A stretch of 35,803 nucleotides of DNA from Chloroflexota bacterium (lineage in GTDB: Bacteria > Chloroflexota > UBA6077 > JACCZL01), in assembly GCA_038318015.1 (NCBI GenBank), contig JBBQBU010000003.1, positions 1 through 35,803 on the forward strand, read 5' to 3'. A model generated the notes under the pieces. It saw only the letters and a program-made list of their open reading frames with translations, searched no databases and was not told where the DNA came from. The translations under genes and the position numbers were made by a program. Positions 1-33,184 of this stretch are shown in pieces. Every line of letters begins with the position of its first letter. The stretch's first letter is position 1.

Positions 1-137
1 CTCGGCCATCCGAACCAGCATCCTTGCCACCGCTCGCAAGCAGGGCCAGAATCTGCTCAACGCCTTCCTCGCCATCGCCGGTCCCTCTCCTCTTCAGGCG
101 GTCCCTACCCGTACGTAGCCCGTACGTGGGTAGTTAC
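1..137 (+). mobile_element. Right end of an IS66-family (ISBst12-like) insertion sequence
   Basis: Transposase tail (2-118) followed by ...GTGGGTAGTTAC ending at 137. Its reverse complement GTAACTACCCAC begins with the GTAA terminus typical of IS66. Imperfect hairpin at 105-133. Confidence 0.75.
2..118 (+). CDS. IS66-family transposase, C-terminal fragment (5' truncated by the window)
   Basis: Frame 2 reads SAIRTSILATARKQGQNLLNAFLAIAGPSPLQAVPTRT*. The S-I-L-x-T-A-R-K-Q-G-x-N-L-L motif is typical of IS66 transposase C-termini. Too short for the ORF track. Confidence 0.75.
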   Translation, partial: SAIRTSILATARKQGQNLLNAFLAIAGPSPLQAVPTRT

Positions 138-284
138 GTGCCATGAGCGGTGACGCCACGCGCCTGATCTCGCGCAGCAGTCTGAAGAATGCTGGGGCCT
201 GCAAGGGAATAACCGTTACACCCGGAGGCAGTCTGACTTCTTATGAAAGCGCCCTCTGATGAGACGGTTATCTCCTGACGAGTC

Positions 285-1196
285 CTAGCTGCGGAGAGCG
301 GCGACGGTTTGCGCCAGACCCTCATGAAGCGGCACCGTCGGTTCCCAGCCTAGGTCACGCCGCGCACGATCAATGGTGAAATAGGCAGCCCGCAGGTCGC
401 CAGGCCGGCGCGGCCCACGACGCGGCTCGACATCGACACCGACCGCATCACAGACCGCCCGAAAGATCTGGTTGACGGACGAGCCCACACCGGTGCCGAT
501 GCAATAGACGCGGTCGTCGCCGGCCGTCGCAGCGAGCAGGTTGGCCCGCGCTACGTCGGTCACGTGGACGTAATCACGCACCTGTTCGCCGTCCCAGTGG
601 ATCATCGGAGACTCGCCACTGAGCAGTTGGTTGGTGAATATGGCCACCACTCCGGCCTCGCCGAAGGCGTCCTGGCGCGGCCCGTACACGTTGCCGTAGC
701 GCAGCGCGGTATAGCGCAGGCCACGGTCGAGCGCGTAGTACTTGAGGTAGTGTTCGGCGACCATCTTCGTGATGCCGTAGGGAGATTCGGGCAACTGTGG
801 GTGATCCTCGTCGATGGGGAGGTACTGCGGATTGCCGTAGGTCGCCCCCGACGACGCAAAGATCACCTTCCGCACGCCGGCCGCAATGCACGACTCAAGC
901 ACGTTGACCAGCCCGAGCACGTTCACCTGGGCGTCGTAGCGCGGATCGTCCGTGGAAACCTTGACCGACATCTGCGCCGCCTCGTGGAAGACGACCTCCG
1001 GTCGTTCTGCCAACAGCACGGATGCAAAGTCCGAACTGACAACGTCCACCTCATGAAAGCGTGCCCGAAGATCAAGGTTGGAACGCTTGCCGGTCTTGAG
1101 ATTATCGGCTACGGCGACATCGTGCCCCTCGGCAAGCAGGAGTTCGACGATATGGGAGCCAATGAAACCGGCCCCACCAGTGACAAGCATCTTCAT
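285..1196 (-). CDS. NAD-dependent epimerase/dehydratase (UDP-glucose 4-epimerase-like extended SDR)
   Basis: 303 aa. TGGAGFIG Rossmann motif, ASSGATYG, catalytic [18 protein letters not shown]-like [12 protein letters not shown] and RRPGD. Confidence 0.93.
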
Positions 1197-1304
1197 GTTC
1201 GATCCGAACGTCGTTAGGCGACATGGCGGCTGATGAGTTGTGCTGAGAGCACGATCAGCCGGTGTCAGGGCTGATGGTCGAGTACCGCGAACGTGCGTTA
1301 GCCC

Positions 1305-2324
1305 TCAGGGCGGCCCCGGCGAAACGGCCTGCGCCTGCGCCTGTGCCTGCACGCCAATCCAGGGGATGGGCATGGACTTCACCGCTGAACACACGAGTTT
1401 CAGCAACGCATCCTGACTTGCGAGCAGCGTGTACAAGCGATCCGAGTTCGGGAGACGCTCAAACCGAACCAGTCCGCTGTCTACGGGCGCACTCCCAAGT
1501 TCCTCGGCAACCGAGTCGATAAATTCCGCTCCGGCTCCGCCCGCCGAATGCACGAACACGACGGGCACTCCGCGCTCGACGAGCTTTGAGGTCAGCCCGA
1601 CGACGATGTTCGAGATTTCCTTCGCCTGGTCGTCGCCGGGTAGCGGCAAGGCGACTTTTCGGGCCACGATATTCTTCAGGCGGAAGTACGTCGTCGTGAT
1701 CGCCCCACCGATGATCTCCTGCGTCACATTGCGGAAGATACTTCGGTAGTCGACCTTGCCAGTGACGAACCGCCTCCACCGTCCAGTGCTCTGAATCGCT
1801 CCATGCAGATAGTAGTTGCGGTAGAATTGGCTGTAGACGCGGTCCCGGTCGTAGCGGACCCAGCTGTCGTCGCCAGCCTCAATGTCCATTGCGATGACAC
1901 CATGAACGTAGGGTGCGTCATATGCGGCCAATAAGGAATGCCAGCCGCCCGAACAGTGTCCCATCAGCACGAAACCCTGGACGCCTCTCGCCCAGTGGAG
2001 CCAGGACATTGCGTCAACCGTATCCTTGACCGCACCGTACGGCCCTTCCAGGATCTCGCCGCGCTGGCGGCTTTCTCCGATGCCAGACAGGTCGAACCGC
2101 AGGACCACATGCCCCTGTTCGGCCAATGCACGGGCGAGCTTGACGTAGAGGCGATTCGGCCCTACCCGATTGATCAGGCCAGGATTCAGCAAAATGACCC
2201 CAGGCAAGTCGGAATCGCGGCGGCCTTCGGGCGGGTCCGTGATGATGCCAACCAGATTCTGCTCCTCGTGGCCGAAAAGCAGAACCTCCTCCGTGATCGT
2301 GACTGGTGACTGACTGGTATTCAC
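1305..2324 (-). CDS. Alpha/beta-hydrolase-fold protein, exosortase-A-associated hydrolase 1-like (Cys elbow)
   Basis: 339 aa. RVGPNRLYVKLARALA, LRFDLSGIGES, elbow GHCSG and YRNYY...RWRRFVTGKVD lid segment. The GTG start overlaps the upstream TGA (GTGA). The position where a catalytic His is expected reads NSDRLY. Confidence 0.8.
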   Translation of the reverse strand: MNTSQSPVTITEEVLLFGHEEQNLVGIITDPPEGRRDSDLPGVILLNPGLINRVGPNRLYVKLARALAEQGHVVLRFDLSGIGESRQRGEILEGPYGAVKDTVDAMSWLHWARGVQGFVLMGHCSGGWHSLLAAYDAPYVHGVIAMDIEAGDDSWVRYDRDRVYSQFYRNYYLHGAIQSTGRWRRFVTGKVDYRSIFRNVTQEIIGGAITTTYFRLKNIVARKVALPLPGDDQAKEISNIVVGLTSKLVERGVPVVFVHSAGGAGAEFIDSVAEELGSAPVDSGLVRFERLPNSDRLYTLLASQDALLKLVCSAVKSMPIPWIGVQAQAQAQAVSPGPP

Positions 2325-3145
2325 TCGCTTTGACTCGACATCCAGGTGACAATTGACTGAAGGGCCTGGTGCGGCACTAGGCCCTTGTCTGGGTCCTCTG
2401 CCCAGACGCTGAAGCCAGGGACGTACTCGTATACCACGTCAACATCCAGGGCCCGCAGATGGTCGCAGAGCCGCTCGACCTCAGGGTCACCCCGGCTGTC
2501 GAACACAAGCACGCTGCGTGCCGGCTTAGTGCCAATCGCCAGCAGATCGAGGGCGGTCAGCTCGTCGATCAAGCGATTATTCATCTTGACTCCGAGCAAC
2601 TCCGACGGCCTCTCGTTCGATTGCTCAACGGTTGGGCGGTCGAAGAAGTGACCCCAGAGCCGTTCCTGATGCTGGACCTTCATCTGCTCCAAGTATTCGC
2701 GGCCATGAATGATCGGATCCCAGAGGACCAGATGCATGACATCGCCGCGCTTCACGGCAGCCTGTAGGGCCAGCGCGGCACCGAGCCGCAACCCGACCAG
2801 GGTGATGTGGCGGCGGTGCATCGCGCGTCGAGTTTCCTCGATAGCGGTCGAAACGTCACCGATCCACCCGTTCAAGCTGGTGTCGTCGTCGCCTCCACCC
2901 GAGTCACCGGTCCCGAAATATTCGAAACGGCCGACCTGGAAGCCCTGACCAGCCAGACGGCTTGCCAGATGTAAGAAGGCCCGATGTGAATAGGCGTATT
3001 CCAATCCCAGCGGATTGCACAGGACTGCCACCGTCTCGCGCTCGGTACCGTCGCTCGGCGGGTGGGAGCAGCCATAGAGACGTCGTTCCGGAGGACCGAA
3101 GAAACCGGGCCAGCGGGTGCCAATCGTGAATCTAACGGGGTCCAT
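2321..3145 (-). CDS. Alpha/beta-hydrolase-fold protein, exosortase-A-associated hydrolase 2-like (no nucleophile: GLRLG)
   Basis: About 274 aa from ATG 3145, overlapping the NRPS end by 14 nt. VLCNPLGLEY, RFEYFGTGDSGG, elbow VGLRLGA and LVLWDPIIHGREYL. Confidence 0.8.
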   Translation of the reverse strand: MDPVRFTIGTRWPGFFGPPERRLYGCSHPPSDGTERETVAVLCNPLGLEYAYSHRAFLHLASRLAGQGFQVGRFEYFGTGDSGGGDDDTSLNGWIGDVSTAIEETRRAMHRRHITLVGLRLGAALALQAAVKRGDVMHLVLWDPIIHGREYLEQMKVQHQERLWGHFFDRPTVEQSNERPSELLGVKMNNRLIDELTALDLLAIGTKPARSVLVFDSRGDPEVERLCDHLRALDVDVVYEYVPGFSVWAEDPDKGLVPHQALQSIVTWMSSQSE

Positions 3146-6100
3146 TCGACCTGGGACCAATCAGGCGCTTGACAGCACTGAACATCTGGTTCGCCAGGCG
3201 CCCGCCTGGCTTGGGCTGCTCGGCCGCTGGCTGAGCAGCCTCCTTGCGCCGCTGGACCGCTTCGTAGATCGCGGCCACCTGCCCGAGGTTCTGCGTCACC
3301 ATGATCCCCACATTGAACCGAACCCCGGTCCGACGTTGGAGTTTGGCGTTGACCTTCATGGCCATCAGCGAATGGCCGCCCAGGTCGAAGAAGTTGTCGT
3401 GCCGGCCGACCTGCTGGATTTCAAGCGCTTCCCGCCAGATCTCCGCGATGATGATCTCCATTGGTGTCTTTGGCGGCTCGAAATCATCCTCAATAGTGGT
3501 CCCCTCTGGCGAGGGCAGTGCCAGACGATTGACCTTTCCATTGGGCGTCAACGGCAGCGCGCTGAGCATCACGAATACGCTCGGCACCATGAATTCAGGC
3601 AGTCGCTCACGCAGGAACGACCGCAGGTCCATGGAGCTCGGTGTATTGCCTTCGATCGGTACCACGTAGGCAACGAGCCGCGACTCCTGCCGTCGGTCAC
3701 GGTCAGCGATGACGACCACGTCACGGACGGTGGGGTGCTTTGCGAGCGCCGCTTCCACCTCACCCGGCTCCACGCGCGAGCCTCGGATCTTGACCTGGTT
3801 ATCGACCCGCCCGACGTATTCGATGTTGCCATCGGCACGGTACCGGGCGCGATCTCCGGTTCGGAACAGGCGCGCGCCCGGCTCGTCAAGAAAGGGGTTC
3901 TGAATGAACCGCTCAGCGGTCAGCGCTGGGCGGTCAAGATACCCCCGAGCCAGGTTCGCACCACCAACATACAGCTCCCCCGAAACGCCGATGGGGACGG
4001 GTTGACCCAACTCGTCAAGGATGTAAGTCTGCGTGTTCTGAATCGCGCGGCCAATCGGGATCGTGGTGAGCGACTCGAGATCGAGCGAGGTGGTATCGCA
4101 GCACGTGACGTCTGCGGCTAGCTCCGACGAACCGTACAGGTTGATCAAACGCACCGATGGCAAGATCGCTCGGAAGCGGCGCACCAACTCAACGGAGAGC
4201 GCCTCGCCGCTGGAAGTCCAGTGCTTGAGATGGGGCAACTTCTTCGCCAGATCTGGCTCGTTTTCGAGCAACGCATCCAGTAGCGAAGGGACCAACACAA
4301 ACCGCGTCACGTTGCTTGCGGCTAGCGTCTCCACCAGCGGACCAAAGTCTTTGACGACCTCGTCGGGGATGAGTACGACGGGCACGCCCTTCAGCAGTGG
4401 GCCGAACAACTCCCAGACTGCGTCAACGAAACTCAGGGTTGTCGTTAGACAGCACGTCTCACGGGGCATGAACGGGTACGCCTGCCACATCCAGGCAAAC
4501 CTATTCAGTGCACCTCGGTGCAATCCGAGCACACCCTTGGGGAGGCCCGTCGACCCCGAAGTGTAGAGGACGTAGGCGGCGCTCTCTGCTGTGGTGGAGG
4601 CGAGCGGATTCTCGGTGCTCTCACCCTCAATCACCAATAGGTCTCGGTCCAGAAACACCACCTGGGCATCTGCATCGGGCTCATGGCTGAGCAGCGCCTC
4701 GATTGTCAGGACGATGTGTGCCCGTGTATCGCGTAGCATGAAGGCCAGTCGATCAGACGGGTAGTTGGGATCGAGCGGCAGATACGTCCCGCCGGCTTTC
4801 AGGACGGCCAGGACGCTGACCACCAGATCAGTCGTTCGCGGAAGGAAGACCCCAACCCGCGTCTCCGGCTCTACGCCTATCCGAACCAGATAGTGCGCCA
4901 GCCGATTCGCCTGCTGGTTGAGTTCGCCGAACGTCATCGGGCCGGTTGACGAGTGCAGCGCGACGACGTCGGGCGTGGCTGCCACCTGCGCTTCGAACAG
5001 ATCCTGGATGCGCTGATCGTTGGGAAAGCTCGCCTCGGTCGCATTCCATTCGACCAGCAGCAGCTGCCGCTCGGACTCGGACATGAGTGGCAGTCGCGCG
5101 ATCTCCTGCTCGGGATCAGCGACTATGGCGGCAAGCAGGGACTCAATGTGCCCTTGCATCCGGACAATCGTCTCGCGATCAAACAGATCGGGGTTGTAGC
5201 GGAAGCGATACACCATGCCCCGCTCGGTTTCGAGCAGGTTCAGGAAGATGTCGGTTCCCTCTTCGGCCTGGTCAAGGTCGAAGCGCTGGACTTCCAGGCC
5301 AGCGACCGTGGTCGTCTTGTGGGTTGGGTCAAGGTGCAGCAGGAAACCGCCGAGTCGACTGAGGGTGTTGATGTTGAACGACACGTCGAAGAAGCGGTCG
5401 CGCTTGCTCCCGCTGTTAGCACGGAGTTCACTCACCACCATTGCCCAGGGGTAATCCTGGTTCTCAATGGCACTGAGTACCGTGGGGTGCATTTGCTGCA
5501 GGAGTTCGGCGAACGTCAACCCCGGCGTCAAGCTCGCCCGCATGAGGACGATATTGGCAAACACGCCAATGACTTCCTCGAACTCGGGGCGGGTACGGCC
5601 GCTCATCGGCGACGCCACGACGATGTCGTCCTGGCCGGTATACCGGTGGAGTTGGACGAAGAAGGCCGCCAGCAGGACGGTGTAGAGCGTCGTGCGATGC
5701 GCCCGGGCCACCTTGCGTAGCCGAACGACCAGCGCCTCATCCAGCGAGAATTCATGTCGGCGCGGCAAGAATTCCTTGTTCAGGACGCGTGGTCGATCAG
5801 TTGGCAGAGCAAGCTGTGGGACTTCACCACCGAGCTGCTGCTGCCAGTACGCGCGCTGTCGCTCGCCCTCCGGTCCGCTCAGCGTATCGGTCTGCCAGGT
5901 CCCAAAGTCGGTGTACTGCGCCTTCGGCGGCGCGAGCGGGTTGGGGCGACCGGCGGTTTCGGCCTCGTACAGATGGCGCAGTTCTTCGAGGAAGAATCCG
6001 AGAGACAGCCCGTCGAAGGCGATATGGTGAGCCACCGGGAACAGAATGTGATCGGTTTCCGAGCGGGTGAACAGTGTGACGCGCAGCACCGGCCCCTTTT

Positions 6101-6511
6101 CGAGGTCGAACTGACGAAGGTGCTCAGCATTGACATGCTTGCGAATCTGCTCGTCAGTCCACTGGCTCGTATCAACCTGCTCGAAATGCACTTCGGCCTG
6201 AGTGTGGACTTCCTGCATTGGCTCGCCAGCGAGCATCGTGTACGTCGTGCGGAACACTGCGTGGCGATCAACCATGCTCTGGAACGCACGCCGCAACGCC
6301 GCGACGTCCACTCGGGAGACGATCTGCATCGGGAACGGCACCGTCAGAGACAGGCTCTCCGGGTGCATCAGGTGGTTGTACCACCACTGCTGCTGCACTT
6401 GTGATTGAGGATGAACGGTCTTCGTATTCCCGAGTCGTTTTGCTAAGAGTTGGGCCGCCAACGCCCGCTTCTCATCGGCGGTCCAGGCACCAAGCTGAGC
6501 CTGTACGTCAG

Positions 6512-6515
<4 letters not shown>
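3132..6515 (-). CDS. Single-module NRPS (C-A-PCP), predicted beta-alanine-activating, with no TE or reductase
   Basis: 1127 aa. C domain HHIAFDG; A-domain motifs YTSGSTGLPKG, NLYGSSE, GELYVGG, FRTGD, QVKIRGSRVE, NGKV; PCP NFFDLGGHSL; then only a short C-terminal tail. The TTG start overlaps the PKS-C stop (TTGA). N-terminal docking-like helix WTADEKRALAAQLL. Confidence 0.95.
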
Positions 6516-12196
<5,681 letters not shown>

Positions 12197-12283
12197 AGTT
12201 ACCCTATGCGCCCCCCGCCACATTCCGGCCGAGCGCCAGATCAGCGCCTTGAGAACTCAGGAACCGACACTTACGCCACGCAT

Positions 12284-12292
12284 GTTATACCA
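12284..12292 (-). promoter_or_regulatory. Putative extended -10 promoter (TGgTATAAC) for the left operon
   Basis: Minus strand reads TGGTATAAC about 90 nt upstream of the PKS-C ATG, an AT-rich hexamer in GC-rich context. Confidence 0.45.
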
Positions 12293-12865
12293 AGCCCGGA
12301 AGACCGCGCCGTAAATTCCGCGCCTACCCTGATGCGGTGTCCCGGCTGACCACCTGGACTCGGAACGCCTCATCGCCAGCGCTCCGGAGAATGCGGCGTC
12401 ATCAGGCGGGATTGGTATTAGTTCGGCAAACGCATGTGGTACATACGCAGTCGGGGCGCGCCAGGAATCGAGCGCCCGCCGCCCATGGCCCGCATCGCCG
12501 CAGGCGAATATACTAGCGGAGCCAGATGACATTATGCCATCTGGCACGGTCTATGCGACAATTAGGCACCCTTCTTTTTAATGGCGCGTTGATCGTGACA
12601 GCAGGCACTCCACTTGGATGAGGCGACATTGGCGAGAGCTCAGGCAGTGGGATCGACCCGCTCGTTGCGAGCGGGGATGCGCACAGCAGGCCACGCCGGC
12701 CCAACGCCGTCGGCCAACATTGACGCACTCGACCAGCAGCCGCCACTCGGCTCTCGCCTGACGACCCACCGTACAGTCGAGCACCCACCTGCGTTACTCG
12801 ACTAGTCCGTCCGGCATCGTTGAGGCGGGTGTGGCACCGGCCTCTAACCTCCGAAGGTGGAATCC

Positions 12866-15800
12866 ATGACCGCGCACCCGTCCGACAGAACCGAGCGTCC
12901 TACTCCACCGTTTGCCCGTCCGGGCAACGAGTCGAAGCAGCCGGCCACGCAGCCGGAACCGATTGCAATCGTCGGCATCGGTTGTCGCTTTCCAGGTGGC
13001 GTTGACTCCCCGGACAGCTTCTGGAAGTTTCTCGTCGAGGGGCGGGATGCTATCACGGACATCCCGGCTAATCGCTTCGATCTCGAATCGACCGGCGACC
13101 CAGAATTGGCGACGACGGTCGAGGGGCGCACGCGGCGAGGCGGCTTCCTTGAACACCTCGATCAGTTCGACGCCCAGTTCTTCGGCATCTCGCCACGGGA
13201 AGCGGCACAGCTTGATCCACAGCAACGCTTGATGCTCGAAGTTGCCTGGGAGGCGCTCGAAGATGCGGGGCATCGGCCAGACCGGCTCGACGGCAAGCAC
13301 ACTGGCGTCTACGTCGGCGTGTGGGCTGGCGATCAGGAAGGACGGCTGGCTCAAGATGCAGCACCGTTCGACTTTTATAAGCACGTGGGGAGTGGCCGCT
13401 ATTTTGCGTCAGGCCGCGTCTCCTATGCGCTCGGACTCGAAGGCCCTAGCCTGACCCTGGACACCGGGTGTTCCTCATCGTTGGTTGCTGTCCATCTGGC
13501 CTGCCAGAGCCTGCGCGCGGGAGAATGTGATGTCGCGCTCGCCGGCGGCGTCAACGTCATCCTCCAACCGCACCTGACGGACGCACTCACGCAGGGCGGG
13601 ATTCTCAGTCCAGATGGACGGTGTAAGTTCGGGGATGCCCGGGCTGACGGCTACGTTCGTAGCGAAGGCGCGGCCGTCGTTGTCCTCAAGCCGCTTACGC
13701 AGGCACTGGCTGACGGTGATCCCATCTACGCCCTCATTCGCGGCGGCGCGGTCAGCAACGATGGACGGAGCAGTGGCTTCCTCGCCACGCCCGGCTCAGA
13801 GGGCCAGGAGGAGACGCTGCGGCGGGCCTATCGGAACGCGGGCGTGTCGCCGGGCAGCGTCGCGTACGTCGAGGCACACGGGACCGGCACCCGCGCTGGT
13901 GACCCGGTCGAACTGCGCGCGATCCATAACGTGTTCAGCGTCGACCGCCCGGCAGACTTGCCCTGCCTCGTCGGCTCGCACAAAACCAATTTTGGGCACA
14001 CTGAAGCTGCAGCTGGTGTGGCCGGGCTCATCAAAGTTGCGCTGGCAGTGAAGCACCGGGTGATCCCCGCCAGCCTGCACTTCTCCGAGCCGAATCCGGG
14101 CTTCAGGTGGGAAGGGTCGCCGGTGGTGATCCCCACCGCAGCGGTCCCCTGGCCGAGTGGGGTCGGGCCTGCACTGGCTGGGATCTCATCCATCGGCCTC
14201 GCGGGCACGAACGCGCATCTCGTGCTGGAGGAACCACCGATTCGGCAATCGGCGCAGGTCCGCACGGATGGCGGCGACCATGATCGGCCTCGCGTGCTGA
14301 CAGTTTCTGGGCACTCCCAGGGGGCGCTTAATGCGGCAGCTGCTCGGCTCCAGGCGTTCCTGGATGACACCGGGTCAGCGGACGTCGCGCTCGACGACAT
14401 TTGCTACACGGCCAACGTGCGCCGCGCGCAGCAAGAGCACCGGGGTGCCGTGGTGGCTCGTGATCGCGCCAGCCTCAGCGCGGGATTGGCTCACCTGGCT
14501 GCTGGCGAGATGGCATCAGGCGTAATCGTCGGACAGACCGGCGCAGACCGGCCAAAGGTCGCCTTTGTGTTCGCGGGGCAGGGTGCGCAGTGGCTGGGCA
14601 TGGGCCGACAGTTGCTGGCTGATGAGCCGGTCTTCCGGGCAGCTATCGAGCGCTGCTCCGCGGCGCTGGCACCGTTGCTCGACGGCTGGTCGCTCCTGGA
14701 AGAACTGACCGCCGACGAGGCCACCTCGAAGCTTGAGCGTATTGACGTGCAGCAGCCGGCCGTCTTTGCCGTTCAGGTGGCACTCGCCGAACTCTGGCGT
14801 TCCTGGGGCATCGAGCCAGCCGCCGTCGTCGGCCATAGCCTCGGGGAAGTGGCCGCAGCCCACGTAGCGGGGGCGCTGAGCCTGGAGGACGCCAGCCGCG
14901 TCGTGACGCTTCGGAGCAAGCTCCTCCGGAAGATCAGCGGGCAGGGTGCGATGGGCGTTGTCGGCCTCTCGATGGACGAGTGCCGTGAGATCCTTGTCGG
15001 CTACGAGGATCGCCTCTCCATCGGCGTGAGCAATAGTCCAAAGTCGACCGTCCTGTCCGGCGATCCCACCGCGTTGGACGAGGTCATGGCGGTAGTGCGG
15101 AACCGGGATGTGTTCTGTCGCCTGGTCAAGATCGACGCAGCCTCACACAGCCCGCAGACCGAGCCACTGCTGCCAGAACTGGCGGCCGGATTGGCGATGA
15201 TCAAGCCGCAGCCGGCCAAACTGCCGTTCTACTCAACGGTGACGGGCGCGATCTGTGAGGGCTTCCTCCACGACGGACACTACTGGACGCGCAACCTGCG
15301 CGAAACGGTGCTGTTCTCGACTGCGGTGGCGCGGCTGGTCGAGGACAACTTCGAAGTCTTCGTAGAGGTCAGCCCGCACCCGATCCTGGTCCAGCCAGTC
15401 GAGGCGACTGCCCATGCACACGGGCGCTCCGTCAAAGCCGTGCCCTCCTTGCAGCGATCGGGAGACGACTGGATGGTCATCCTGAGTTCGTTGGGGGCGC
15501 TCCACGTCGCCGGCTGCGCCGTTGACTGGACGCGGCTCTACCCGAACGATGGCACAGTCTGTTCTCTACCGACCTATGCCTGGCAGCGCGACCGCTATTG
15601 GTTCGACGCAAAGTCAGCGCCAACAGGTGTCGTGTCGTGGGCAGCGGAGGCCGGCGGTGAGCCTGCTTTGCACCCGTTGCTGGGCGCTCGCCTGCCGGAT
15701 CTCGCGGTGCTACCGGGCAGTGTGGTGTGGCAGCGCCCGCTAGATGAGCGTCTGGCGCGCAAGCTTCTCGGCGAGCAGGCTTCCGACGCGCCGCTGCCGT

Positions 15801-18097
15801 CAACGCTTCCCGATGCGGCCTATCAGGCGTTGTCCATCGCTGCCGCGAAGGCACGCTTCGGCGACGGCCACCATACGGTCGGTGCGATCTCGCTCCAGGA
15901 GCCGCTGCCGCTCGATCACGGTGGTGCCAGGACATTGCAATGCCTGTTGACGCCGAGCACGGATAGCAACGCGGCGTTGCAAGTCTTCAGCCGAAACGGC
16001 GCAGGCTCCGGCTGGACACGGCACGCCGAGACCAGCCTGAGCATTGACCACCTCGATCCGAAGCACCTGTACGCACTTGCGTGGCGCCAACAACAAGGGT
16101 CACAGGATTCTGACAAGAAGGCGTCTGAGGCCGTTGCTGGCTCCTGGCTCATCTTCGCTGACCGCGCAGGCGTCGGCGCAAAGCTGGCCGAGCGACTGGC
16201 CAAGCACGGTGCTACGGCCGTTCTGATCGAGGCTGGCGAGTCGTTCAGTCTGCCAGCGGGTGACTCGGGTTCCTACACGGTGAATCCGAGCAGTCCAGCG
16301 GACTTCGACCGGCTGCTGGAGGCGCTTCGCGTCACCCATGGCGAGACGTGCCACGGTGTCGTCTTTCTCTGGGGACTTGATCTGCCGGCCACAGAGTCGC
16401 TCAGTGCCGCAGTTCTTCAGAAGGCGCAGGCGCTGGGTGTGGGGAGCCTCCTCCACCTCACGCAAGCACTCGCGCGAGCCTGTTGGGCGTCGGCACCGCG
16501 AATCTGGGGCGTCACCCAGGGAGCCGAGGCGGTGGCCGGCGAGGTCGCGCTGACGGTCTCGCAGGCTCCACTCTGGGGGCTGGGCCGGGTGATCGGGCTG
16601 GAGCATCCAAACCTCTGGGGCGGCCTCATTGACCTGTCGCTGGATGAGGCGTCGCTGGGCGCCAGCCTCGATGCGCTGGCGGCCGAGATCAGCGCGTCCG
16701 ACGGTGAAGATCAGGTCGCCTACCGAGCCGGCCAGCGGTACACAGCCCGCCTGGTTCACGCAGCCGTGCAGGACGACGTTCCCCGTCGCCTGACGCTACG
16801 AGCGGACGCAACCTACCTCGTGACAGGCGGCACTGGCAGCCTTGGACTGGAGTTAGCGCGCTGGCTGATTGACCAGGGCGCGCGGCATCTCGTCCTGACG
16901 AGCCGCAGCGGTCTGCCTGACCGGGCGGGGTGGGAAGCGTTGCCAGCTGGCTCGACGGAGCGGCGGCGAATCGAGGCGGTGCGAGCGTTCGAAGCGCGCG
17001 GGGCGAGGGTCACAGTGGCGCGCGTCGATGTGGCAGACTCGGCCGGTATGGCCGCCCTCTTGACCGCGCTACGCCTGACGCACCCACCACTGCGCGGCAT
17101 CATCCACGCCGCAGGCACGATCAATACGCAGCCGATCACTGCCCTCTCGGCCGAAGACCTCAACGAGATCATGCGTCCGAAGGTGGCCGGTGCCTGGACG
17201 CTGCACGAACTCACCAGTGACCTGGGGGCCGGCACGGACGGACTCGACTTCTTCGTCTGCTTCTCCTCGGGAGCCGCGCTCTGGGGCTCGCACGGGTTGG
17301 CGCACTACGCTGCGGCGAACCACTTCATGGATGCCCTCGTCCACCATCGGCGTCGGCTTGGCCTTCACGCCCTGAGCGTCAACTGGGGCTCCTGGGCCGG
17401 CGGAGGTATGGCCACTGGTGCGCTCGGCGAGGACTTCGAGCAGGCTGGTCTGAGCACCGTGCCGACCGAGTCGGCCCTGGCCGCGCTCGGCTACTTGTTG
17501 GCCACCGACGCGACGCAGCAAGCCGTCGCCGCCTTCGATTGGGCGACCTTCAAGCCGATCTACGAAGCTCGTCGTTCGCGGCCACTGCTCGCAGAGATCG
17601 AAGTAGCCGCGCCGGCCACGGCGCTCGTCGAACACCAGCGGCAGTCAGAGTTTCTGGAGCGCTGGGAGCACGCGCTCCCGAGCCAGCGCCCCGGTCTGCT
17701 CACGACGCTGGTGCAAAGTGTGGCGGCGCGGATTCTTGGATTCACCGAAGCGGACAAGCTCGACCGTACTCAGGGCTTTTTCAAGCTGGGAATGGACTCG
17801 ATCATGACCGTCCAGCTTCGGAGCCAGCTGGAAGCCAGCATTGGCCGCCCACTCCCGCCCACGGTGGCGTTCGAGTACCCGACAGTTGCGAGTCTGGCCG
17901 ACTACCTCGCCACGGAGATATTGCCGGTCGCGGAGGCGGGCAATGGCTCCGTCGATGTGCCGGCGGACGTGCCAGAAGCCGACCAGAACGGTCACGCAAC
18001 GCCCGAAGCCAATCTCGATGACCTCAGCACTGACGATCTGCTAGCGCTGTTCGACAAGGAGTTCGAGAGCGCTAGTGACTACGCCGAGAAGCTTTAG
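12866..18097 (+). CDS. Type I cis-AT PKS module PKS-A: KS-AT-(truncated DH)-KR-ACP-dock
   Basis: ATG 12866 after GAAGGTGG (GTG 12857 also possible). KS DTGCSSS/HGTGT/KTNFGH; AT GQGAQW, RIDVQQP, GHSLG, AASH; half DH from HPLLG without the catalytic His; KR GGTGSLG, WGSHGLAHYAAAN; ACP LGMDSI; C-terminal LDDLSTDDLLALF. Confidence 0.95.
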   Translation: MTAHPSDRTERPTPPFARPGNESKQPATQPEPIAIVGIGCRFPGGVDSPDSFWKFLVEGRDAITDIPANRFDLESTGDPELATTVEGRTRRGGFLEHLDQFDAQFFGISPREAAQLDPQQRLMLEVAWEALEDAGHRPDRLDGKHTGVYVGVWAGDQEGRLAQDAAPFDFYKHVGSGRYFASGRVSYALGLEGPSLTLDTGCSSSLVAVHLACQSLRAGECDVALAGGVNVILQPHLTDALTQGGILSPDGRCKFGDARADGYVRSEGAAVVVLKPLTQALADGDPIYALIRGGAVSNDGRSSGFLATPGSEGQEETLRRAYRNAGVSPGSVAYVEAHGTGTRAGDPVELRAIHNVFSVDRPADLPCLVGSHKTNFGHTEAAAGVAGLIKVALAVKHRVIPASLHFSEPNPGFRWEGSPVVIPTAAVPWPSGVGPALAGISSIGLAGTNAHLVLEEPPIRQSAQVRTDGGDHDRPRVLTVSGHSQGALNAAAARLQAFLDDTGSADVALDDICYTANVRRAQQEHRGAVVARDRASLSAGLAHLAAGEMASGVIVGQTGADRPKVAFVFAGQGAQWLGMGRQLLADEPVFRAAIERCSAALAPLLDGWSLLEELTADEATSKLERIDVQQPAVFAVQVALAELWRSWGIEPAAVVGHSLGEVAAAHVAGALSLEDASRVVTLRSKLLRKISGQGAMGVVGLSMDECREILVGYEDRLSIGVSNSPKSTVLSGDPTALDEVMAVVRNRDVFCRLVKIDAASHSPQTEPLLPELAAGLAMIKPQPAKLPFYSTVTGAICEGFLHDGHYWTRNLRETVLFSTAVARLVEDNFEVFVEVSPHPILVQPVEATAHAHGRSVKAVPSLQRSGDDWMVILSSLGALHVAGCAVDWTRLYPNDGTVCSLPTYAWQRDRYWFDAKSAPTGVVSWAAEAGGEPALHPLLGARLPDLAVLPGSVVWQRPLDERLARKLLGEQASDAPLPSTLPDAAYQALSIAAAKARFGDGHHTVGAISLQEPLPLDHGGARTLQCLLTPSTDSNAALQVFSRNGAGSGWTRHAETSLSIDHLDPKHLYALAWRQQQGSQDSDKKASEAVAGSWLIFADRAGVGAKLAERLAKHGATAVLIEAGESFSLPAGDSGSYTVNPSSPADFDRLLEALRVTHGETCHGVVFLWGLDLPATESLSAAVLQKAQALGVGSLLHLTQALARACWASAPRIWGVTQGAEAVAGEVALTVSQAPLWGLGRVIGLEHPNLWGGLIDLSLDEASLGASLDALAAEISASDGEDQVAYRAGQRYTARLVHAAVQDDVPRRLTLRADATYLVTGGTGSLGLELARWLIDQGARHLVLTSRSGLPDRAGWEALPAGSTERRRIEAVRAFEARGARVTVARVDVADSAGMAALLTALRLTHPPLRGIIHAAGTINTQPITALSAEDLNEIMRPKVAGAWTLHELTSDLGAGTDGLDFFVCFSSGAALWGSHGLAHYAAANHFMDALVHHRRRLGLHALSVNWGSWAGGGMATGALGEDFEQAGLSTVPTESALAALGYLLATDATQQAVAAFDWATFKPIYEARRSRPLLAEIEVAAPATALVEHQRQSEFLERWEHALPSQRPGLLTTLVQSVAARILGFTEADKLDRTQGFFKLGMDSIMTVQLRSQLEASIGRPLPPTVAFEYPTVASLADYLATEILPVAEAGNGSVDVPADVPEADQNGHATPEANLDDLSTDDLLALFDKEFESASDYAEKL

Positions 18098-18105
18098 GAA
18101 GTTTT

Positions 18106-21100
18106 TTGAACGCAATCGACTACGAGTCCCGACTGCGGAGCGCACTGCAGACACTCCAGCGCATGAAGGCGCGCCTGGATGTTCTCGAAAAGCACGAGGT
18201 CCGGCGCACCGAGCCGATCGCGATCATCGGTGTCGGCTGTCGCTTTCCCGGAGGGGTCAACGACCTCGCCTCGTACTGGGATCTTCTGGCGAACGGCGTG
18301 GATGCCATCCGGGAGATCCCCGCTGATCGTTGGGATGCGGCTGCGTACTACAACGCTGATCCGGATGCGCCGGGCCAAATGAACACCCGTTGGGGTGGCT
18401 TCCTGGACCAGATTGACCAGTTCGACCCCGAGTTTTTCGGCATCGCGCCGCGCGAGGCCAGAAAGATGGACCCTCAGCAGCGGTTGCTCCTGGAAGTGGC
18501 GATCGAGGCGCTTGAGCACGCCGGCCAGCCCCAGGATCGGCTGGTCAATAGTCGGACCGGCGTCTTCATCGGGGTGACACTCAGTGACTACCTCCAGCTC
18601 CAGGCCGACATCGACCCTTCTGAAATCGATGCCTACCGTCTGACCGGCAACGTCCTCAACGCCACGGCTGGGCGGATCTCGTACTTGCTCGGCCTCCAGG
18701 GGCCGACCATCGCGCTTGACACTGCCTGCTCGTCGTCGCTGGTGTCGGTACACCTCGCGGTCCAGAGCCTGCGGTCCGGCGAGTGCGAAATGGCGCTGGC
18801 CGGCGGCGTCAACGCGGTACTGTCTCCCGAGTGGACGATCACGCTCTCGAAGAACCGGATGCTCTCCCCGACGGGGCGGTGTCATACCTTCGATGCGAGC
18901 GCCGATGGCCTTGTGCGTGGTGAGGGCTGCGGTCTGATCGTGCTCAAGCGGTTGTCGGATGCCCAGGCAGCCGGCGACAACATCCTGGGGCTGATTCGCG
19001 GCTCCGCCATCAACCATGATGGCCCGAAAAGCGGCTTCACGGTTCCGAATAAGCTAGCCCAGCAGGCGGTCATCAAAGACGCGCTGGCGAATGCTGGGGC
19101 GAGCCCGCTTGACATCGGGTATGTCGAGGCGCACGGCACCGGCACATCACTCGGTGACCCCATCGAGGTACGGGCGCTGGCTGCCGCGCTTGGTGAGGGG
19201 CGGACCGAGGAGCAGGCGCTGGTTCTCGGTTCGGTCAAGACCAACATTGGCCACCTCGAATCGGCGGCCGGCATCGCTGGTTTGATCAAGGCACTGCTCT
19301 GCCTTCAGCATCGCCAGATCCCGCCCCACCTGCACCTCCAGCAGCCGAGTCCCTTCATCGGCTGGGATGAGATGCCGATGATCGTGCCAACGGCGATGCG
19401 TGCCTGGCAGGCCGGTTCACACGGACAACTGGCCGGCACCAGTTCTTTTGGAGCTAGTGGAACCAACGCGCACGTGATCCTGGCAGCGGCCCCGGAGACG
19501 ACCCACGAAGCCGTGCCGGCAGCCGAGCCAACTGATGCGGCCTGGCTACTCCCGATCTCAGCCCACAACTCGGCTGCGCTTCAGGCTCGCGCCGAGCTTT
19601 TCCGAGACCTGCTGGCCGATGAAGCGCAGCAGATCTCGCTGCGCGACCTCTGCTACACCGCCAGCCGGCGTCGTGCGCACCTCGATCAGCGGCTGGCGGT
19701 CTGGGGATCGACTCGCCAGGAACTGGCGGAGCACCTGGGCCGATTTGCCCGTGGCGAGGATTCTGATGGCGTCGCGAGTGGCCGGCTCGATCCAGGCCAG
19801 ACACCCCGCGTCGTCTTCGTCTGCGCTGGTCAGGGTCCGCAATGGTGGGCGATGGGACGTGACCTAGCGGCGCGCGAACCGGTCTTTCGGGCGGCGCTAG
19901 AGCGCTGCGACGCGTTGCTGCGCCCACTGAGCGGCTGGTCGCTGCTTGATGAATTGGGACGGAGCGAGGCTGACTCGCGTATTAACGAGACTGAGGTGGC
20001 TCAGCCGGCTCTCGTCTCCCTGCAGATTGCGCTGAGCGAGCTCTGGCGTTCGTGGGGCATCATCCCGGACGCCGTGGTCGGGCACAGCGTCGGTGAAGTC
20101 GCGGCGGCCCAGATCGCCGGCGTGCTGAGCCTGGAAGATGCCATCCACATCGTGTACCAGCGCGGCCGACTGATGCAACGGGCGACCGGGCACGGTAAAA
20201 TGGCCTCAGTCGAGTTGTCGGAAACCGATGCGCTCGCCGCAATAGCGCCGTGGGGCGAGCGGATATCGGTTGCGGTGGCAAACAGTCCGTCTAACAGCGT
20301 GCTGTCCGGAGAGCCGTCCGCCGTGCAAGCAGTGCTGGCTGTGCTTGAGCAGCGGGGCGTGCGCTGTCGACTGTTGCAGGTCGAATACGCCTCGCACAGC
20401 ACGCAGATGGCACCGTATCAGACCGAGCTTGTGGAATTGCTGCGTGATGTGAAGCCACGCGCGGCGAGGATGCCGCTCATCTCGACGGTGACGGGCGCGC
20501 AGGTCAGCGGTCTGGAGCTTGACGCCGGGTACTGGGGCCGAAACCTCCGCCAGTCGGTCCGCTTCGCCTCGGCGATGACCCATCTGATTTCCGAAGGCTA
20601 CGATACGTTCCTGGAAGTCGCTCCACACCCAGTCCTTACGCCGTCGATTGAAGCGTGTTTGGCTGACGCCGAGCGACCAGGAGCCGTGCTGCTGTCTCTG
20701 CAGCGCGGCCGGCCTGAACGGGAGACGATGCTGACGGCACTGGGCCAACTCTACGCACGCGGCCTACGGCCAGATTGGGAGCCGCTCACCGCCGGCGGAC
20801 ATGCTATCGATTTGCCGGCCTACCCCTGGAAGCGGCGCCGCTTCTGGCTGGAGCCGTCCGACCGGTCAACTCGCCAGACCGCTGTCCGTGCAGGCGCCGA
20901 TGCCGAGCACCCGCTGCTTGGTCGTCGGGTACGCTCCCCGATGGTCGAGGGGACGTTGTTCGAGGCTGAACTGCGTGCTGAGCGGCCGGGGTTCATCGGT
21001 GACCACGAAGTGGTCGAAGTCGTGGTCTTGCCCGGGACCGCCTATCTAGAGATAGCGTTGGCCGGTGCGGAAGCGGCATTTGGGACTGGATCACACACAC

Positions 21101-24100
21101 TCGAGGCGGTCGCGCTGGAAGAGGCGATGGTCCTGCCCGAGGGCGGTGTCCGAACCGTCCAGTTCCACCTCGATGAGCCGCAGGCCGGTTCAGCGGGCTG
21201 GCAGCTTTACGGATCAGTCGACGGTGACCGCTGGACCCGACATGCCAGCGGCACCGTCCGCCTCAATGGAGCCGGCCTGGGGGTGAGCGATCAGTTCCGC
21301 CCGGAGGAGGTTCAGAACCGCTGCCCTGACGAGATGGCGGCTGACCTCCTCTATGCCAACCTGCGTGAACGCGGCCTGGGCCTCGGCGCCCGCTTCCGTG
21401 GCGTCGAGCGGATCTGGCGCGGCCAGGACGAAGTGCTCGGTCGGATAGTACGGCCGGAAGCATTGGCGGAGGACGTCCTCCCATACCGCTTTCATCCCGC
21501 GCTGCTCGATGCTTGTCTCCAGGTAGCCGCTGCCGCCTGGCCGGGCGATGGAGCGATGTTCCTGCCGGTGGGGCTTGAGAGCCTGAGCGTGTTTCAGGCT
21601 CCCGGGGAACAGCTCTGGTGTCACGCGACGTTGCGCCCGCAGGCCGCCGGTAACAACGAAACACACACGGCTGACTTGCGTGTCTCCACGCTGTCCGGTG
21701 CGCTCGTCGCGATGCTGAGGGGTGTCAGCTTCAAGCGAGTTGAGCACGGCGTGCTCGTGCGTCTGCTGACCGGGACTGGTGCCCGCTTCAACGATTGGCT
21801 GTACGAGGTCGCGTGGCGTCCCGTGGGCAACCTTGCATCTGCGGCCCCCACGGCCAGCGACGATCTGCCAGCACCCCGCGTGCTAGTCAATGCCGCGGCC
21901 CGGTCGTGGCCTGAGATTCGCCGTCGGTGCGATCTCGCGCACTACGAGCAACTGGTGCCGGCGCTCGATGCGCTGAGTACGACCCACGCTGTTCTGGCGC
22001 TCCGAGAACTCGGTTGCCCGCTGCAACGCGGGCAGCGGTTCTCGACGCACACGCTTGCTGAACAGCTTGGCATCCAGCCCCGTCATCTGCGAGAGCTTGC
22101 TCGGCTGCTGCAGTTCTTGGAAGAGGATGGCGTGCTTCGCCGCGTTGGTGACTCCTGGGAAGTCATCGCTGAGCCGACCGTCATTGATCTCGGCCCGGCC
22201 TGGGCAGCCCTACGCGCCAAGTACCCGGCGGCGCGCGGCGAGATCGACTTGACTGAGCGCTGCGGTCAGCATCTGGCCGAAGCTCTGACCGGCCGAGCCG
22301 ATCCGCTGCAACTCCTGTTTCCGGGCGGTTCTCTCGACACCGCCGAGCATCTCTACCAGGACTCACCGGTGCTGAAGGCCTACAATACGGTGCTGCAAGA
22401 GGTCGTGCACGGCGTGGTGGCGGCGCACGCTTCTAGTCGGCGGCTTCGGGTGCTTGAGATTGGGGCGGGCACCGGCGGAACGGCATCACACCTGTTGCCG
22501 CTGCTGCCGGCTGACCAGACCGAGTACGTCTTCACGGACGTGTCGGTGCTGTTCCTGGCGCGCGCCGAGGAAAAATTCAGCACGTATCCGTTCGTCCGCT
22601 ACCAACTGCTCGATATCGGCCGCGATCCCACTGCACAAGGTCTTGCTGCAGAGCAATTTGACATCGTCGTGGCGTCAAACGTGCTGCATGCGACCGCCGA
22701 TCTTCAAGAGACGCTCAGCCACGCGCGAACGCTTTTGGCGGCCGGAGGGCTGTTGCTCCTGCTGGAGAACACCAGCCGTCAGCGCTGGGCAGACCTCACC
22801 TTTGGATTGACCGAAGGCTGGTGGGCCTTCCAGGACAAGGAGTTGCGGCCCGACTACCCGCTCATCAGCGGTGAGGCGTGGCTTGTGCTGCTTGGGCGTG
22901 TCGGCTTCGAAGGCGCGGTGGCGGCTCCCGGTCTTTCTCAGTCGGGTGGGACGGTACTCCAACAGGTCTTCATCGCGCAGGCTCCGCACACGCCCGCATC
23001 GACGGCATTGGCTCCGAACTCGGCCCCTGGCGGTTGGCTGATTCTGGCTGACAGCAATGGCGTTGGCGAGCGGTTAGCTGCTGCGGTCACGTCGCGCGGT
23101 GAACCGAGCGTTCTCGTCAGACCTGGTCCGTCCTTCGCTGAAATTGCACCGGGGCGATGGGAAATTGACCCCAGCAACAGTGCCGACTTCGAGCGTCTGG
23201 TGCGCTCGGGTTCTCAGTGGCGCGGAGTCGTTTTTCTCTGGGGGGAGGGCGCCGCACCCGCAGATCGCACAACCGTCGCTAGCCTTGAGCAAGATGGACG
23301 GCTGGGCACCGGCGGCGCGCTGCAACTCGTCCAGGCACTCGTGAAACATGCAGACGGTGAAACACCACGTCTATTCCTGGTGACGCGTGGCGCGCAGCCA
23401 ATCGGAGTACCCGACGTTCTGAATATCGCCCAATCGCCACTGTGGGGCTTCGGCCGGGCTGTTGATCTCGAACATCCAGAGCTACGATGTGTCCGCATCG
23501 ATCTCGATCCCGCACCCGAGGCCGACGTCGTGCCAGCCCTGCTGGCTGAGGTGCGCAGTCCAGATACCGAGAACCAGATCGGTCACCGTGGCGGACAGCG
23601 CTTCGCGCCACGACTCGTACGGCGTGAGTCGCTCCCTCCTGCCCCCACTGCCGTTGCCGAGCAGGCCATCCGCCTCACGATCCCTGAGCCTGGCGCGCTT
23701 GACCGCATGGTGCTCGAACCAGAAACGCGGCGTCCGCCTGGCCCCGGTGAGGTCGAGGTTCGTGTCCGGGCAATCGGTCTGAACTTCCGCGACGTACTCG
23801 TGGCGCTTGGGATGCTCGAGGGGCCGGTGGCCGAGGAACCGATTGGGTACGACTGCGCCGGTGACATCGTGTCTGTCGGTGCAGGAGTGACTGCGTTTCG
23901 GATCGGCGATGCGGTGTTTGGGACGGCCCGTGGCTGCATGGGTACCTACGTCACGGCGCCGGCCGCACCACTCATTGCCAAGCCGGACTCCCTGACTTTT
24001 GAAGATGCCGCAGCGATTCCAAGCGCCTACTTGACGGCCTACTATGGGCTGCACACGTTGGCAGGCCTCAAGGCTGGCGAGCGCGTGTTGATCCACGCTG

Positions 24101-25934: not shown

Positions 25935-26723
25935 TTAAGGCATCAGCCGGGCGGACGGCGGCACCACCCCTGCCAGCGAGCGGTTGATCTCGGTCAACAG
26001 CTCCTGGCGGGCGGTTTGGAGGTAGAAGTGGCCGCCAGGAAACAACTTCGGCTCCTTAGGCTTCGTGGTATGGATCGCCCAGCCCATCAGGTCCGTAACG
26101 GGAACGCTGGTGTCGTCGATTCCACCGAACACGCTGATCGGGCAATCGAGCGGCTCCTCCTCAACCCACGAGTGGGTCTCGAAGATCTTCACGTCAGCCC
26201 GCAGAATCGGCATATACAGGCTGAGCATCTCGGGATCCTGGCGAATGAGATCCGGGATGCCGTTGTAGCGCCGCGCTAGTTCGTCCAGGAACATCTCGTC
26301 AGGCAGGCTGTGGATCGGCCCGAACCTCGGCGGCAAATGCGGTGCACGGCGCGCGGAGATGAAGAGGTGGGCCGGTTGCAGCCCGTAGCGCCGTCGCAAC
26401 GTCCGCACAAGTTCAAAGCCAACCAGCCCGCCGAGGCTATGCCCGAAGATCGCGAACGGCTCTTTAAGGTAGCCGGCCAGCGCTTCAGCCAGTTGCTCGA
26501 TCAAGGTGTCCATCTGATTCAGCGGTGTCTCGCGCAGGCGGTTCTCGCGCCCCGGTAGCTGGATCGGACACAACTCGATCTCTGGCGGCAACAGCCGTGC
26601 CCAGGAAAAATATTGAGACGCGCCGCCACCAGCGTTCGGCAGACAGAGGAGCGGCATTCCGCCCCGATGCGCTTTGTGCGGGCGAGCGAACCAGGCTTCG
26701 ACGAATGGAACGGGTACGGTCAA
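25935..26723 (-). CDS. Type II (editing) thioesterase
   Basis: 262 aa. LCLPNAGGGAS, IQLPGRENR, GHSLG, PILRAD and FPGGHFY. Convergent with PKS-B, with only 8 bp between the stops. Confidence 0.93.
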   Translation of the reverse strand: MTVPVPFVEAWFARPHKAHRGGMPLLCLPNAGGGASQYFSWARLLPPEIELCPIQLPGRENRLRETPLNQMDTLIEQLAEALAGYLKEPFAIFGHSLGGLVGFELVRTLRRRYGLQPAHLFISARRAPHLPPRFGPIHSLPDEMFLDELARRYNGIPDLIRQDPEMLSLYMPILRADVKIFETHSWVEEEPLDCPISVFGGIDDTSVPVTDLMGWAIHTTKPKEPKLFPGGHFYLQTARQELLTEINRSLAGVVPPSARLMP

Positions 26724-29751: not shown

Positions 29752-29756
29752 CAGAA

Positions 29757-30058
29757 GAACAGTGTCCCGTCAGATGTGTCAAGGAGGGTTGGTGCGACCC
29801 TTTTCGAGGCTGTAAAGCTGACGTGGCGGGGGCCGAGTTCCACGTATCGTGCTGCCGTGCTAGGACCGAACCGACGACGGGCATGACCGGCGCGTCGTTC
29901 GGGAATATGCCGACAACCTTGGTGCGGCGCTTGATCGCCTGCATGAGCCATTCGAGCGGGTTGCTCGACTCGTGTATGCGCCAGGGCCATGCTCGCCATG
30001 TCGGCCATCGTCGTCGTACTCTCGCTCACGATCCACAAAATTTGAGTCGACACCATCC
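29757..30058 (-). mobile_element. Internally deleted IS256-family element (about 300 bp, both ends retained)
   Basis: Minus strand: left end GGATGGTGTCGACTCAAAT, then MADMASMALA (transposase-like N-terminus) joined out of frame to SSNPLEWLMQAIKRRTKVVGIFPND...LARQHDTW (IS256 C-terminal motif). The other end reads GAACAGTGTCCCGTCAGAT on +. No target duplication visible. Confidence 0.75.
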
Positions 30059-33139: not shown

Positions 33140-33184
33140 CGCGCAGAGTATTCCGTGCGCTGGCGCCAGGAGGAAAAAACCGTG

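Follow-up and report, generated by a model that had tools for sequence, protein, structure and literature searches.

The present study concerns two overlapping genes, H2 and H1, on a contig of a Chloroflexota metagenome-assembled genome (MAG; contig JBBQBU010000003.1 of assembly GCA_038318015.1). The whole contig (35.8 kb; 35,803 nucleotides) was analyzed and is referred to hereafter as the window; the genome comprises 6.1 Mb in 824 contigs and is 89% complete. H2 and H1 encode proteins with an alpha/beta-hydrolase fold and follow a nonribosomal peptide synthetase (NRPS) module that has no thioesterase (TE). We consider it probable, at roughly 60%, that the two proteins form a heterodimeric chain-release unit, which stands in for the missing TE and works through an acyl-enzyme on a Cys residue. 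Judged from sequences and predicted structures, the pair appears to be a real, conserved two-subunit release module, a variant of assembly-line termination that is related to a catalogued pair of families without an assigned function. What looks new here is an H1 clade in which the catalytic His has been replaced by Arg, together with a terminal module apparently of the beta-amino-acid type.

Chain release sets the final product of an assembly line, which may be an acid, macrocycle, amide, or conjugate. TE-less lines of NRPS and polyketide synthase (PKS) proteins end in this pair in many phyla, with at least 592 loci in species-representative genomes. Once known, the chemistry of the pair would allow genome-mining tools to predict the products of such clusters and would show the role of the invariant Arg at a nucleophile elbow. 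The 'hydrolase 1/2' families associated with exosortase A would likewise gain a function.

The NRPS module (3132..6515, minus strand, 1127 aa) has the order C-A-T, with Pfam matches to Condensation (residues 34-487), AMP-binding (507-860), AMP-binding_C (919-994), and PP-binding (1023-1080). The carrier motif GGHS and the motif HHxxxDG were both read. Approximately 45 residues remain past the carrier domain, and Pfam revealed no TE, R, or terminal C domain in this protein; no PKS or NRPS protein in the window ends in a TE, reductase, or terminal condensation domain by the same measure. H2 (2321..3145, minus strand, 274 aa, elbow G-L-R-L-G) starts at an ATG at position 3145 inside the NRPS frame, the stop codon of which is the TAG at 3134-3132, and the two genes overlap by 14 nt (3132..3145). 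The stop of H2 and the GTG start of H1 (1305..2324, minus strand, 339 aa, elbow G-H-C-S-G) overlap by 4 nt in the sequence GTGA (2321..2324). Both minus-strand overlaps were described in the original prediction and are present; the 1:1:1 co-translation that it read from them is an inference. A longer H2 is possible from a TTG at 3160, from which the frame is open; the length of 274 aa recurred in 14 of 14 full-length matches with at least 75% identity (P0121-P0134). The N-terminus of H1 agrees with homologues that begin with VNTVQS. A promoter and terminator scan of positions 1-3400 found nothing over the shuffled expectation.

The elbows of both proteins lack the sequence G-x-S-x-G. In H1, the elbow reads L-M-G-H-C-S-G-G, with Cys124 encoded by TGT at 1955-1953, and in H2 it reads V-G-L-R-L-G-A, with Arg120 encoded by CGG at 2788-2786. 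The original prediction placed these two residues at the nucleophile position, and the fold models and alignments to solved esterases agree with it. In the AlphaFold2 model of H1 (predicted local distance difference test [pLDDT] 86.3), Cys124 lies between strand 118-123 and helix 125-136, and in that of H2 (pLDDT 89.7), Arg120 lies between strand 113-119 and helix 121-133. The H1 model also has a large helical lid of approximately 100 residues (ca. 153-250). In profile alignments to solved esterases, the Cys of H1 coincided with the Ser of G-L-S-M-G, the Arg of H2 coincided with the Ser of G-F-S-L-G, and the D-H-x-F of the H1 family matched the G-D-H-T-F His loop of these enzymes. The fold itself was recovered above the cut-off with Pfam Abhydrolase_1 for H1 and Hydrolase_4 for H2. 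Foldseek returned at least 500 matches for each protein at E <= 0.001, all of them generic enzymes (esterases, lipases, and monoglyceride lipases) that shared 12-20% identity; a solved close relative of H1 or H2 was not among them.

The two elbow residues are strongly conserved. In the protein search, in which proteins of Chloroflexota MAGs were the nearest named homologues of H1 and H2, the Cys was present in 119/120 H1 matches and the Arg in 120/120 H2 matches. A pool of near-full-length H1 domains from protein matches, genome loci, and fusions carried Cys in 209/209. A profile search with H2 among 1.84 billion cluster-representative proteins yielded 4,998 matches at E <= 1e-30. The best 150 of these proteins gave 165 domain matches, with Arg in 147 and Cys in 13 at the elbow column; the Cys-bearing matches presumably represent H1 portions of H2-H1 fusions. 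Since the Arg is invariant, unlike the elbow of a decaying pseudo-enzyme, it is not a decayed residue and is under selection for a function. H2 was initially described as a pseudo-enzyme that serves as a scaffold. With an Arg that is invariant throughout the family, this label may understate its role.

H2 and H1 occur together in most of the loci examined. The scan of species-representative genomes gave at least 600 pattern matches, at least 592 of which were confirmed relatives, and the 80 best were examined as loci. These span Chloroflexota, Acidobacteriota, Gemmatimonadota, Myxococcota, Gammaproteobacteria, Calditrichia, Planctomycetota, and others. Both genes were present in 75 of the 80 loci, and H1 was directly downstream of H2 in 73 of those 75. 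Among 50 longer homologues, 36 were single-chain fusions, always in the order H2 then H1; the Cys was kept in 36/36 fusions and the Arg in 49/50 longer homologues. P0116, from the first protein search, is a further H2-H1 fusion.

A complex of H1 and H2 was predicted with a score of 0.89 (0.88-0.89 in three runs, with at least 67% of contacts in common and a partner pLDDT of at least 83), while the best of three controls scored 0.05. Of 157 solved complexes, 116 reach the mark for this score, as do 2 of 215 mismatched pairs; these counts are roughly applicable here, our own alignments having been used. Such a score speaks for binding but does not demonstrate it. The predicted interface is pseudo-symmetric: each subunit contributes the loop that follows strand 3 and its G-x-G-D/E-S loop, and the His loop of H1 (295-301) contacts residues 181-187 of H2. 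Conserved columns of H1 were enriched in the interface (10/33 vs 20/306; Fisher p = 1.5e-4). The heterodimer proposed in the original prediction is in line with the conserved pair in 75/80 loci, the 36 fusions, and the gap in score from the control, and we regard it as very likely that H1 and H2 associate in this manner.

The pair closes an assembly line that has no TE, with the Arg protein as the carrier-side partner, and the wider family agrees on both points. In the window, the pair follows the terminal C-A-T module. In 43 of the 80 loci, H2 is preceded on its own strand by the end of a full A domain. Since the gap between the A domain and H2 is 619 nt or less in 40 of these 43 loci, there is room for a carrier domain and not for a TE. 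H2 adjoins the carrier domain and may be fused to it: 14 of the 50 longer homologues were carrier-H2 fusions, comprising C-A-T-H2 (7), A-T-H2 (4), and PKS-ACP-H2 (3), and one further homologue had the architecture (A)-T-H2-H1. P0165 and P0183 are PP-binding-H2 fusions, and C-A-T and H2 are joined in one stop-to-stop frame in L012, L014, L059, and L074. The order was carrier, H2, H1 throughout, except in L060. Neither H1 nor H2 matched the TE family PF00975 at E <= 0.01; the open reading frame (ORF) at 26723-25935 matched it at 1.4e-40.

The H1 of the window has lost the residue expected to assist its Cys. Arg296 (codon 1439-1437) stands at the position of the canonical catalytic His. The same column in the 209 H1 domains has His in 194 and Arg in 14, and the Arg-bearing domains (14/209) are confined to one clade consisting of the window's protein and its closest relatives. 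Arg296 was found in 13/13 close H1 homologues. Across the 13 sequences of this clade, which are 69-81% identical, Cys124, the G-H-C-S-G-G frame, D295-R296, and approximately 150 other positions are invariant. Since Arg296 replaces the catalytic His, the usual Cys-His chemistry is not available to the H1 of the window. The His-less H1 is thus a test case, provided by nature, of how many triad members a Cys enzyme requires.

Other candidates for the remaining members of a triad were considered and rejected. We looked for a conserved acid in H1, and none could be assigned because the canonical positions vary (E 89, A 49, and others at 261; D 72, S 53, and others at 263; n=209); position 261 is Glu in most relatives and Ala in the window. 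In H2, His259 is at the canonical His position, at which His occurs in 32/165 domain matches. As a stand-in for the lost His of H1, His259 was rejected because N, T, and A also occur in this column among the closely related sequences.

We propose that the acyl-aminoacyl chain on the NRPS carrier would be passed to Cys124 of H1 by transthioesterification. H2, without a nucleophile, would hold H1 and sit beside the carrier domain, and the pocket around its invariant Arg may bind an anionic group, such as the phosphate of phosphopantetheine or a phosphorylated or carboxylated acceptor. The acyl-S-enzyme may then be resolved by an acceptor, namely, a sugar hydroxyl or amine rather than water; we favor these over water because of the glycan-gene neighborhoods across the family. 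In the clade of the window, H1 may act as a Cys(thiolate)-Arg acyl shuttle that needs an amine or thiol nucleophile, or a base from elsewhere. An Arg beside the Cys may keep the latter as a thiolate, which would suffice for thiol-thioester exchange and be poor for the activation of water. Because Cys-Arg would activate water poorly, a shuttle or transferase fits the His-less H1 better than a hydrolase.

Several observations weigh against the proposed release unit. The His-less H1 of the window could be catalytically weak or dead, and the H1 family has no conserved acid at the canonical position, with 261 and 263 both variable. Conserved H2 columns were not enriched in the predicted interface (6/36 vs 34/238; p = 0.8). 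H1 is upstream of H2 in L060 and 1.2 kb away from it in L063. Five of the 80 loci (L046, L057, L062, L065, and L075) have H2 without a separate H1; L062 ends at the contig edge, and in L065 one ORF matches both profiles. In L046 (2-1078), L057 (8945-10795), and L075 (351-1322), the H2-type domain without an H1 neighbor is followed by further PKS/NRPS modules (KS or C-A). Because of these modules, H2 may have a role that does not need H1, and its position between assembly-line proteins may reflect docking independent of H1. Moreover, carrier-H2 fusions are expected from the gene order alone and are no proof that H2 docks the carrier. The enrichment of glycan genes described below is an impression from 64 chosen ORFs without a background control.

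The identity of the terminal residue bears on what the pair would release. The specificity positions of the A domain in the window read V-D-W-V-T-S-L-A-D (+K). In the region 4300-5000, the anchoring Asp is shifted by one residue, and this is the sole V-D start; all 43 other terminal A domains examined begin with D. When the anchoring Asp is displaced by one position in this way, the A domain is of the kind that takes beta-amino acids. It is plausible from these positions that the terminal A domain is specific for a beta-amino acid, and the earlier call of beta-alanine is plausible to the same degree; a search of the literature found no printed confirmation of the substrate of this domain. The motif F-V-D-A-V-W is common to the A domain of the window and that of the metagenome locus L096. 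Elsewhere in the family, the signature DILQLG(M/L)(V/I)W, which we take to be of the glycine type, was present in 22 of 43 terminal A domains, and the others look like Ala, Asn, Ser, and unassigned types.

The neighborhoods of the pair were surveyed in a census of 64 out of 131 candidate ORFs shortly downstream of H1 in the related loci, chosen by strand and size (all plus-strand ORFs below 1,100 aa and ten minus-strand ORFs). Twenty of the 64 were glycan-related and included glycosyltransferases, polysaccharide deacetylases, Wzx-type flippases, pyruvyl- and acyl-transferases, glycosidases, and DegT sugar aminotransferases. The rest included seven phosphopantetheinyl transferases, four type II thioesterases, three ABC transporters, and two asparagine synthases, and 15 of the 64 matched no family. 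The type II thioesterases lie directly downstream of H1 in L019, L027, L055, and L080. A protein of approximately 1000 aa follows H1 in L008 (12011-15037), L032 (11788-14712), and L064 (11756-14836), all from soil MAGs (a Terriglobales, a Candidatus Angelobacter, and one labelled Saccharimonadales). In Pfam, this protein matched only a HAD-like Hydrolase_3 segment, close to its C-terminus, and it is a conserved partner of no assigned function.

A tentative extension of the release function is that the pair grafts the NRPS/PKS product, via the Cys thioester of H1, onto a sugar or lipid-linked glycan, with no free molecule being made. The Arg pocket of H2 would grip a phosphate, either on the phosphopantetheine arm or on the acceptor, and the clade of the window would represent a His-less Cys-Arg shuttle for an amine or thiol acceptor. 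We regard this as possible, though less probable than not. A route that attaches lipopeptides to exopolysaccharides is one possible outcome, and, if grafting occurs, bacteria in many phyla would make polysaccharides or glycolipids decorated with assembly-line lipopeptides.

A less probable alternative is that the pair is a hydrolytic TE in two pieces, in which the chain is loaded on the Cys of H1 and water frees an acid, such as a polyketide-acyl amino acid resembling a lipoamino acid. The Cys-His pair of 194/209 H1 domains is competent for hydrolysis, and the nearest solved relatives are esterases. The small terminal residue of most loci (22/43, presumably glycine) would give products that resemble N-acyl amino acids. 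[quoted passage not shown] However, in the H1 of the window, water would have no His to activate it, and neither a Cys nucleophile nor an obligatory second subunit with an Arg pocket is needed for plain hydrolysis. The frequent glycan-modifying neighbors also argue for an acceptor other than water. We thus consider plain hydrolysis unlikely.

It is improbable that the pair of the window clade became catalytically dead after the change from His to Arg and persists as a structural or docking element, with another hydrolase of the cluster releasing the chain. The replacement in 13/13 close homologues speaks for such a loss, and an S15-family hydrolase (28679-26787) and type II thioesterase (26723-25935) are both present in the window as potential substitutes. 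The occurrence of H2 alone between assembly-line proteins in L046, L057, and L075 also suggests docking. However, the invariance of Cys124, the G-H-C-S-G-G frame, and approximately 150 positions over 13 sequences that are only 69-81% identical is unexpected for a relic site, and Arg296 is itself invariant and has not drifted. Very improbable is an editing thioesterase, or a tailoring esterase or acyltransferase acting on the free product or a polysaccharide: the generic fold with esterase relatives and the glycan neighborhoods are compatible with it, but the pair stands exactly where a TE would follow the final carrier domain, 15 proteins have H2 joined covalently to a carrier domain, and editing is already covered by a separate type II thioesterase (PF00975) in the window, as well as directly downstream of H1 in four loci.

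The release unit proposed here resembles the pair TIGR03101 (hydr2_PEP, hydrolase 2) and TIGR03100 (hydr1_PEP, hydrolase 1), both named for their association with the exosortase A system, with which the original prediction had suggested a comparison. The best NCBIfam match of H2 was TIGR03101 (93.7 bits against a cut-off of 202.75), and that of H1 was TIGR03100 (82.9 bits against 168.45, over profile positions 1-179 of 274). The link to these families is real, since each was the best match; however, both scores are below the cut-offs, and the window pair is not a member of either family as defined. Bona fide TIGR03101 members scored 339-345 bits in three genomes, and one pair scored 303 (TIGR03101) and 383.1 (TIGR03100). 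The likeness extends to the gene order of H2 then H1 and to adjacent partner genes. TIGR03101/TIGR03100 pairs are described as occurring alongside an acyl carrier protein and an acyl-CoA ligase and would thus likewise be tied to a carrier-bound acyl group. Furthermore, bona fide pairs in the three genomes keep G-L-R-A-G in one protein and G-L-C-D-A with D-A-D-H in the other, so the elbow Cys and Arg appear to be an old hallmark of both lineages. This feature is an observation of the present analysis and lies outside the curated definition of the two families. The differences are that the window pair scores under half the cut-offs and that the carrier it follows is the final domain in a PKS-NRPS line. 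Since three genomes (G001-G003; L081-L083 and L086-L088) each hold a bona fide pair (339-345 bits) and a separate NRPS-type pair (90-95 bits), we consider the exosortase-type and NRPS-type pairs to be distinct paralogous lineages, which occur side by side and do not stand in for each other. On these comparisons, the genes of the window appear to belong to a separate lineage associated with assembly lines.

Cys43 and His54 of H2, both invariant in the NRPS-type subfamily, were also considered as a catalytic pair and rejected. They align with C-H-G and A-H-R-L-F, two motifs that ordinary serine esterases of this family also carry, and the bona fide TIGR03101 member L081 does not keep them in the one alignment read. 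On these two grounds, they are regarded as structural or family motifs.

TIGR03100 and TIGR03101 are 'hypothetical equivalog' models with no function assigned. A ligase or decarboxylase is the expected partner of these families. In L098, a bona fide pair is immediately preceded by a long ORF (4766-7936, plus strand), which had no NCBIfam match at E <= 1e-6. An exosortase (TIGR03109, PF09721) was not found in the window genome at E <= 0.001, and, as the genome is 89% complete, its absence is unproven. The look-up of H2 in the ESM Atlas returned only clusters named 'Hydrolase_4' and 'exosortase A-associated hydrolase 2'. We found no functional study of the H1/H2 pair or of TIGR03100/TIGR03101 in the literature, and, among the papers found, the two families were named only in a study on exopolysaccharides of Burkholderia. 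The words 'hydrolase', 'ligase', 'acyl carrier', and 'decarboxylase' are all absent from Haft 2006 (PMC1569441).

The pair shares with type I TE domains the alpha/beta-hydrolase fold, the site immediately after the last carrier domain, and, as proposed above, acyl-enzyme chemistry. It differs in consisting of two polypeptides, in the absence of a PF00975 match, in the invariant Arg of one subunit, and in the H1 lid of approximately 100 residues. The nearest relatives of H1 and H2 are enzymes of the Hydrolase_4/feruloyl-esterase type, and the pair would work in the manner of a trans-acting TE. A few TEs are said to have Cys instead of Ser, and the Cys-containing TE of the obafluorin synthetase reportedly makes a strained ring. 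SyrC and CmaE are free-standing, Cys-dependent aminoacyl transferases with an alpha/beta-hydrolase fold that shuttle aminoacyl groups between carrier domains. By analogy with these descriptions, the pair may likewise take an acyl group from a carrier as a Cys thioester and pass it on rather than hydrolyse it. In contrast to the pair, SyrC and CmaE act alone and mid-pathway, and we know of no Arg-elbow partner for either enzyme.

The nearest solved sequences are of the feruloyl-esterase/PET46/MHETase type (8B4U, 9PJB, and 9PIC), with E values of 1.9e-30 for H1 and 1.3e-23 for H2. They share the motifs R-F-D-x-x-G-x-G-D-S and H-R-L-(F/Y)-V and the D-H-T-F His loop. However, they are single-chain Ser-His-Asp esterases, and the identity in structural alignments is 12-20%. 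Membership among PhaC-like proteins or dienelactone hydrolases was rejected because neither H1 nor H2 had such a Pfam match at E <= 0.01.

A search for orthologues at E <= 1e-20 in 66 genomes of the class gave matches in three (the window's own genome, one at 37% identity, and one fragment), and no orthologous cluster was found among them. A metagenome scan with a single protein returned nothing. With an alignment of the clade, the same type of scan recovered L096, which is 73% identical and encodes a PKS, an NRPS that shares the V-D motif of the window, H2 (GLRLG), and H1 (GHCSG, S-D-R-L-Y). L078 contains two complete H2-H1 pairs (9794-11634, plus strand; 15284-13543, minus strand), which are convergent and each located behind its own NRPS.

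The remainder of the window holds further parts of the assembly line. A PKS module with the order KS-AT-DH-KR-ACP (6512..12223, minus strand, Pfam) feeds the NRPS and overlaps it by 4 nt. Two more PKS modules are divergent from it (12857..25926, plus strand): a KS-AT-DH-KR-ACP module, the DH of which is represented by its N-terminal part only, and a KS-AT-DH-cMT-ER-KR-ACP module. The intergenic region between the divergent PKS genes spans 12224-12856. A loading module (FAAL, KSQ, or CoA ligase) was not found anywhere on the contig. The type II thioesterase is a separate gene (25935..26723, minus strand; PF00975, E 1.4e-40). It adjoins a gene for a 630-aa alpha/beta hydrolase of the S15 family (26787..28679, minus strand; X-Pro dipeptidyl-peptidase/cocaine-esterase type in Pfam), which is a possible alternative release or tailoring enzyme.

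A GalE-like NAD-dependent sugar epimerase/dehydratase (285..1196, minus strand) is encoded 108 nt downstream of H1; it matched Pfam Epimerase and scored 201.9 bits against TIGR01179, under the cut-off of 262.3. Two ORFs, of 196 aa (29751-30341, minus strand) and 231 aa (33155-33850), matched no Pfam family. A 1055-aa protein with DUF7948 and SBBP beta-propeller repeats (29972-33139, plus strand) overlaps the former. A GT1-family glycosyltransferase is encoded near the end of the contig (34090..35370, plus strand; Pfam EryCIII-like_C, Glyco_transf_28, and UDPGT) and is a possible source of a sugar acceptor or of a glycosylated product.

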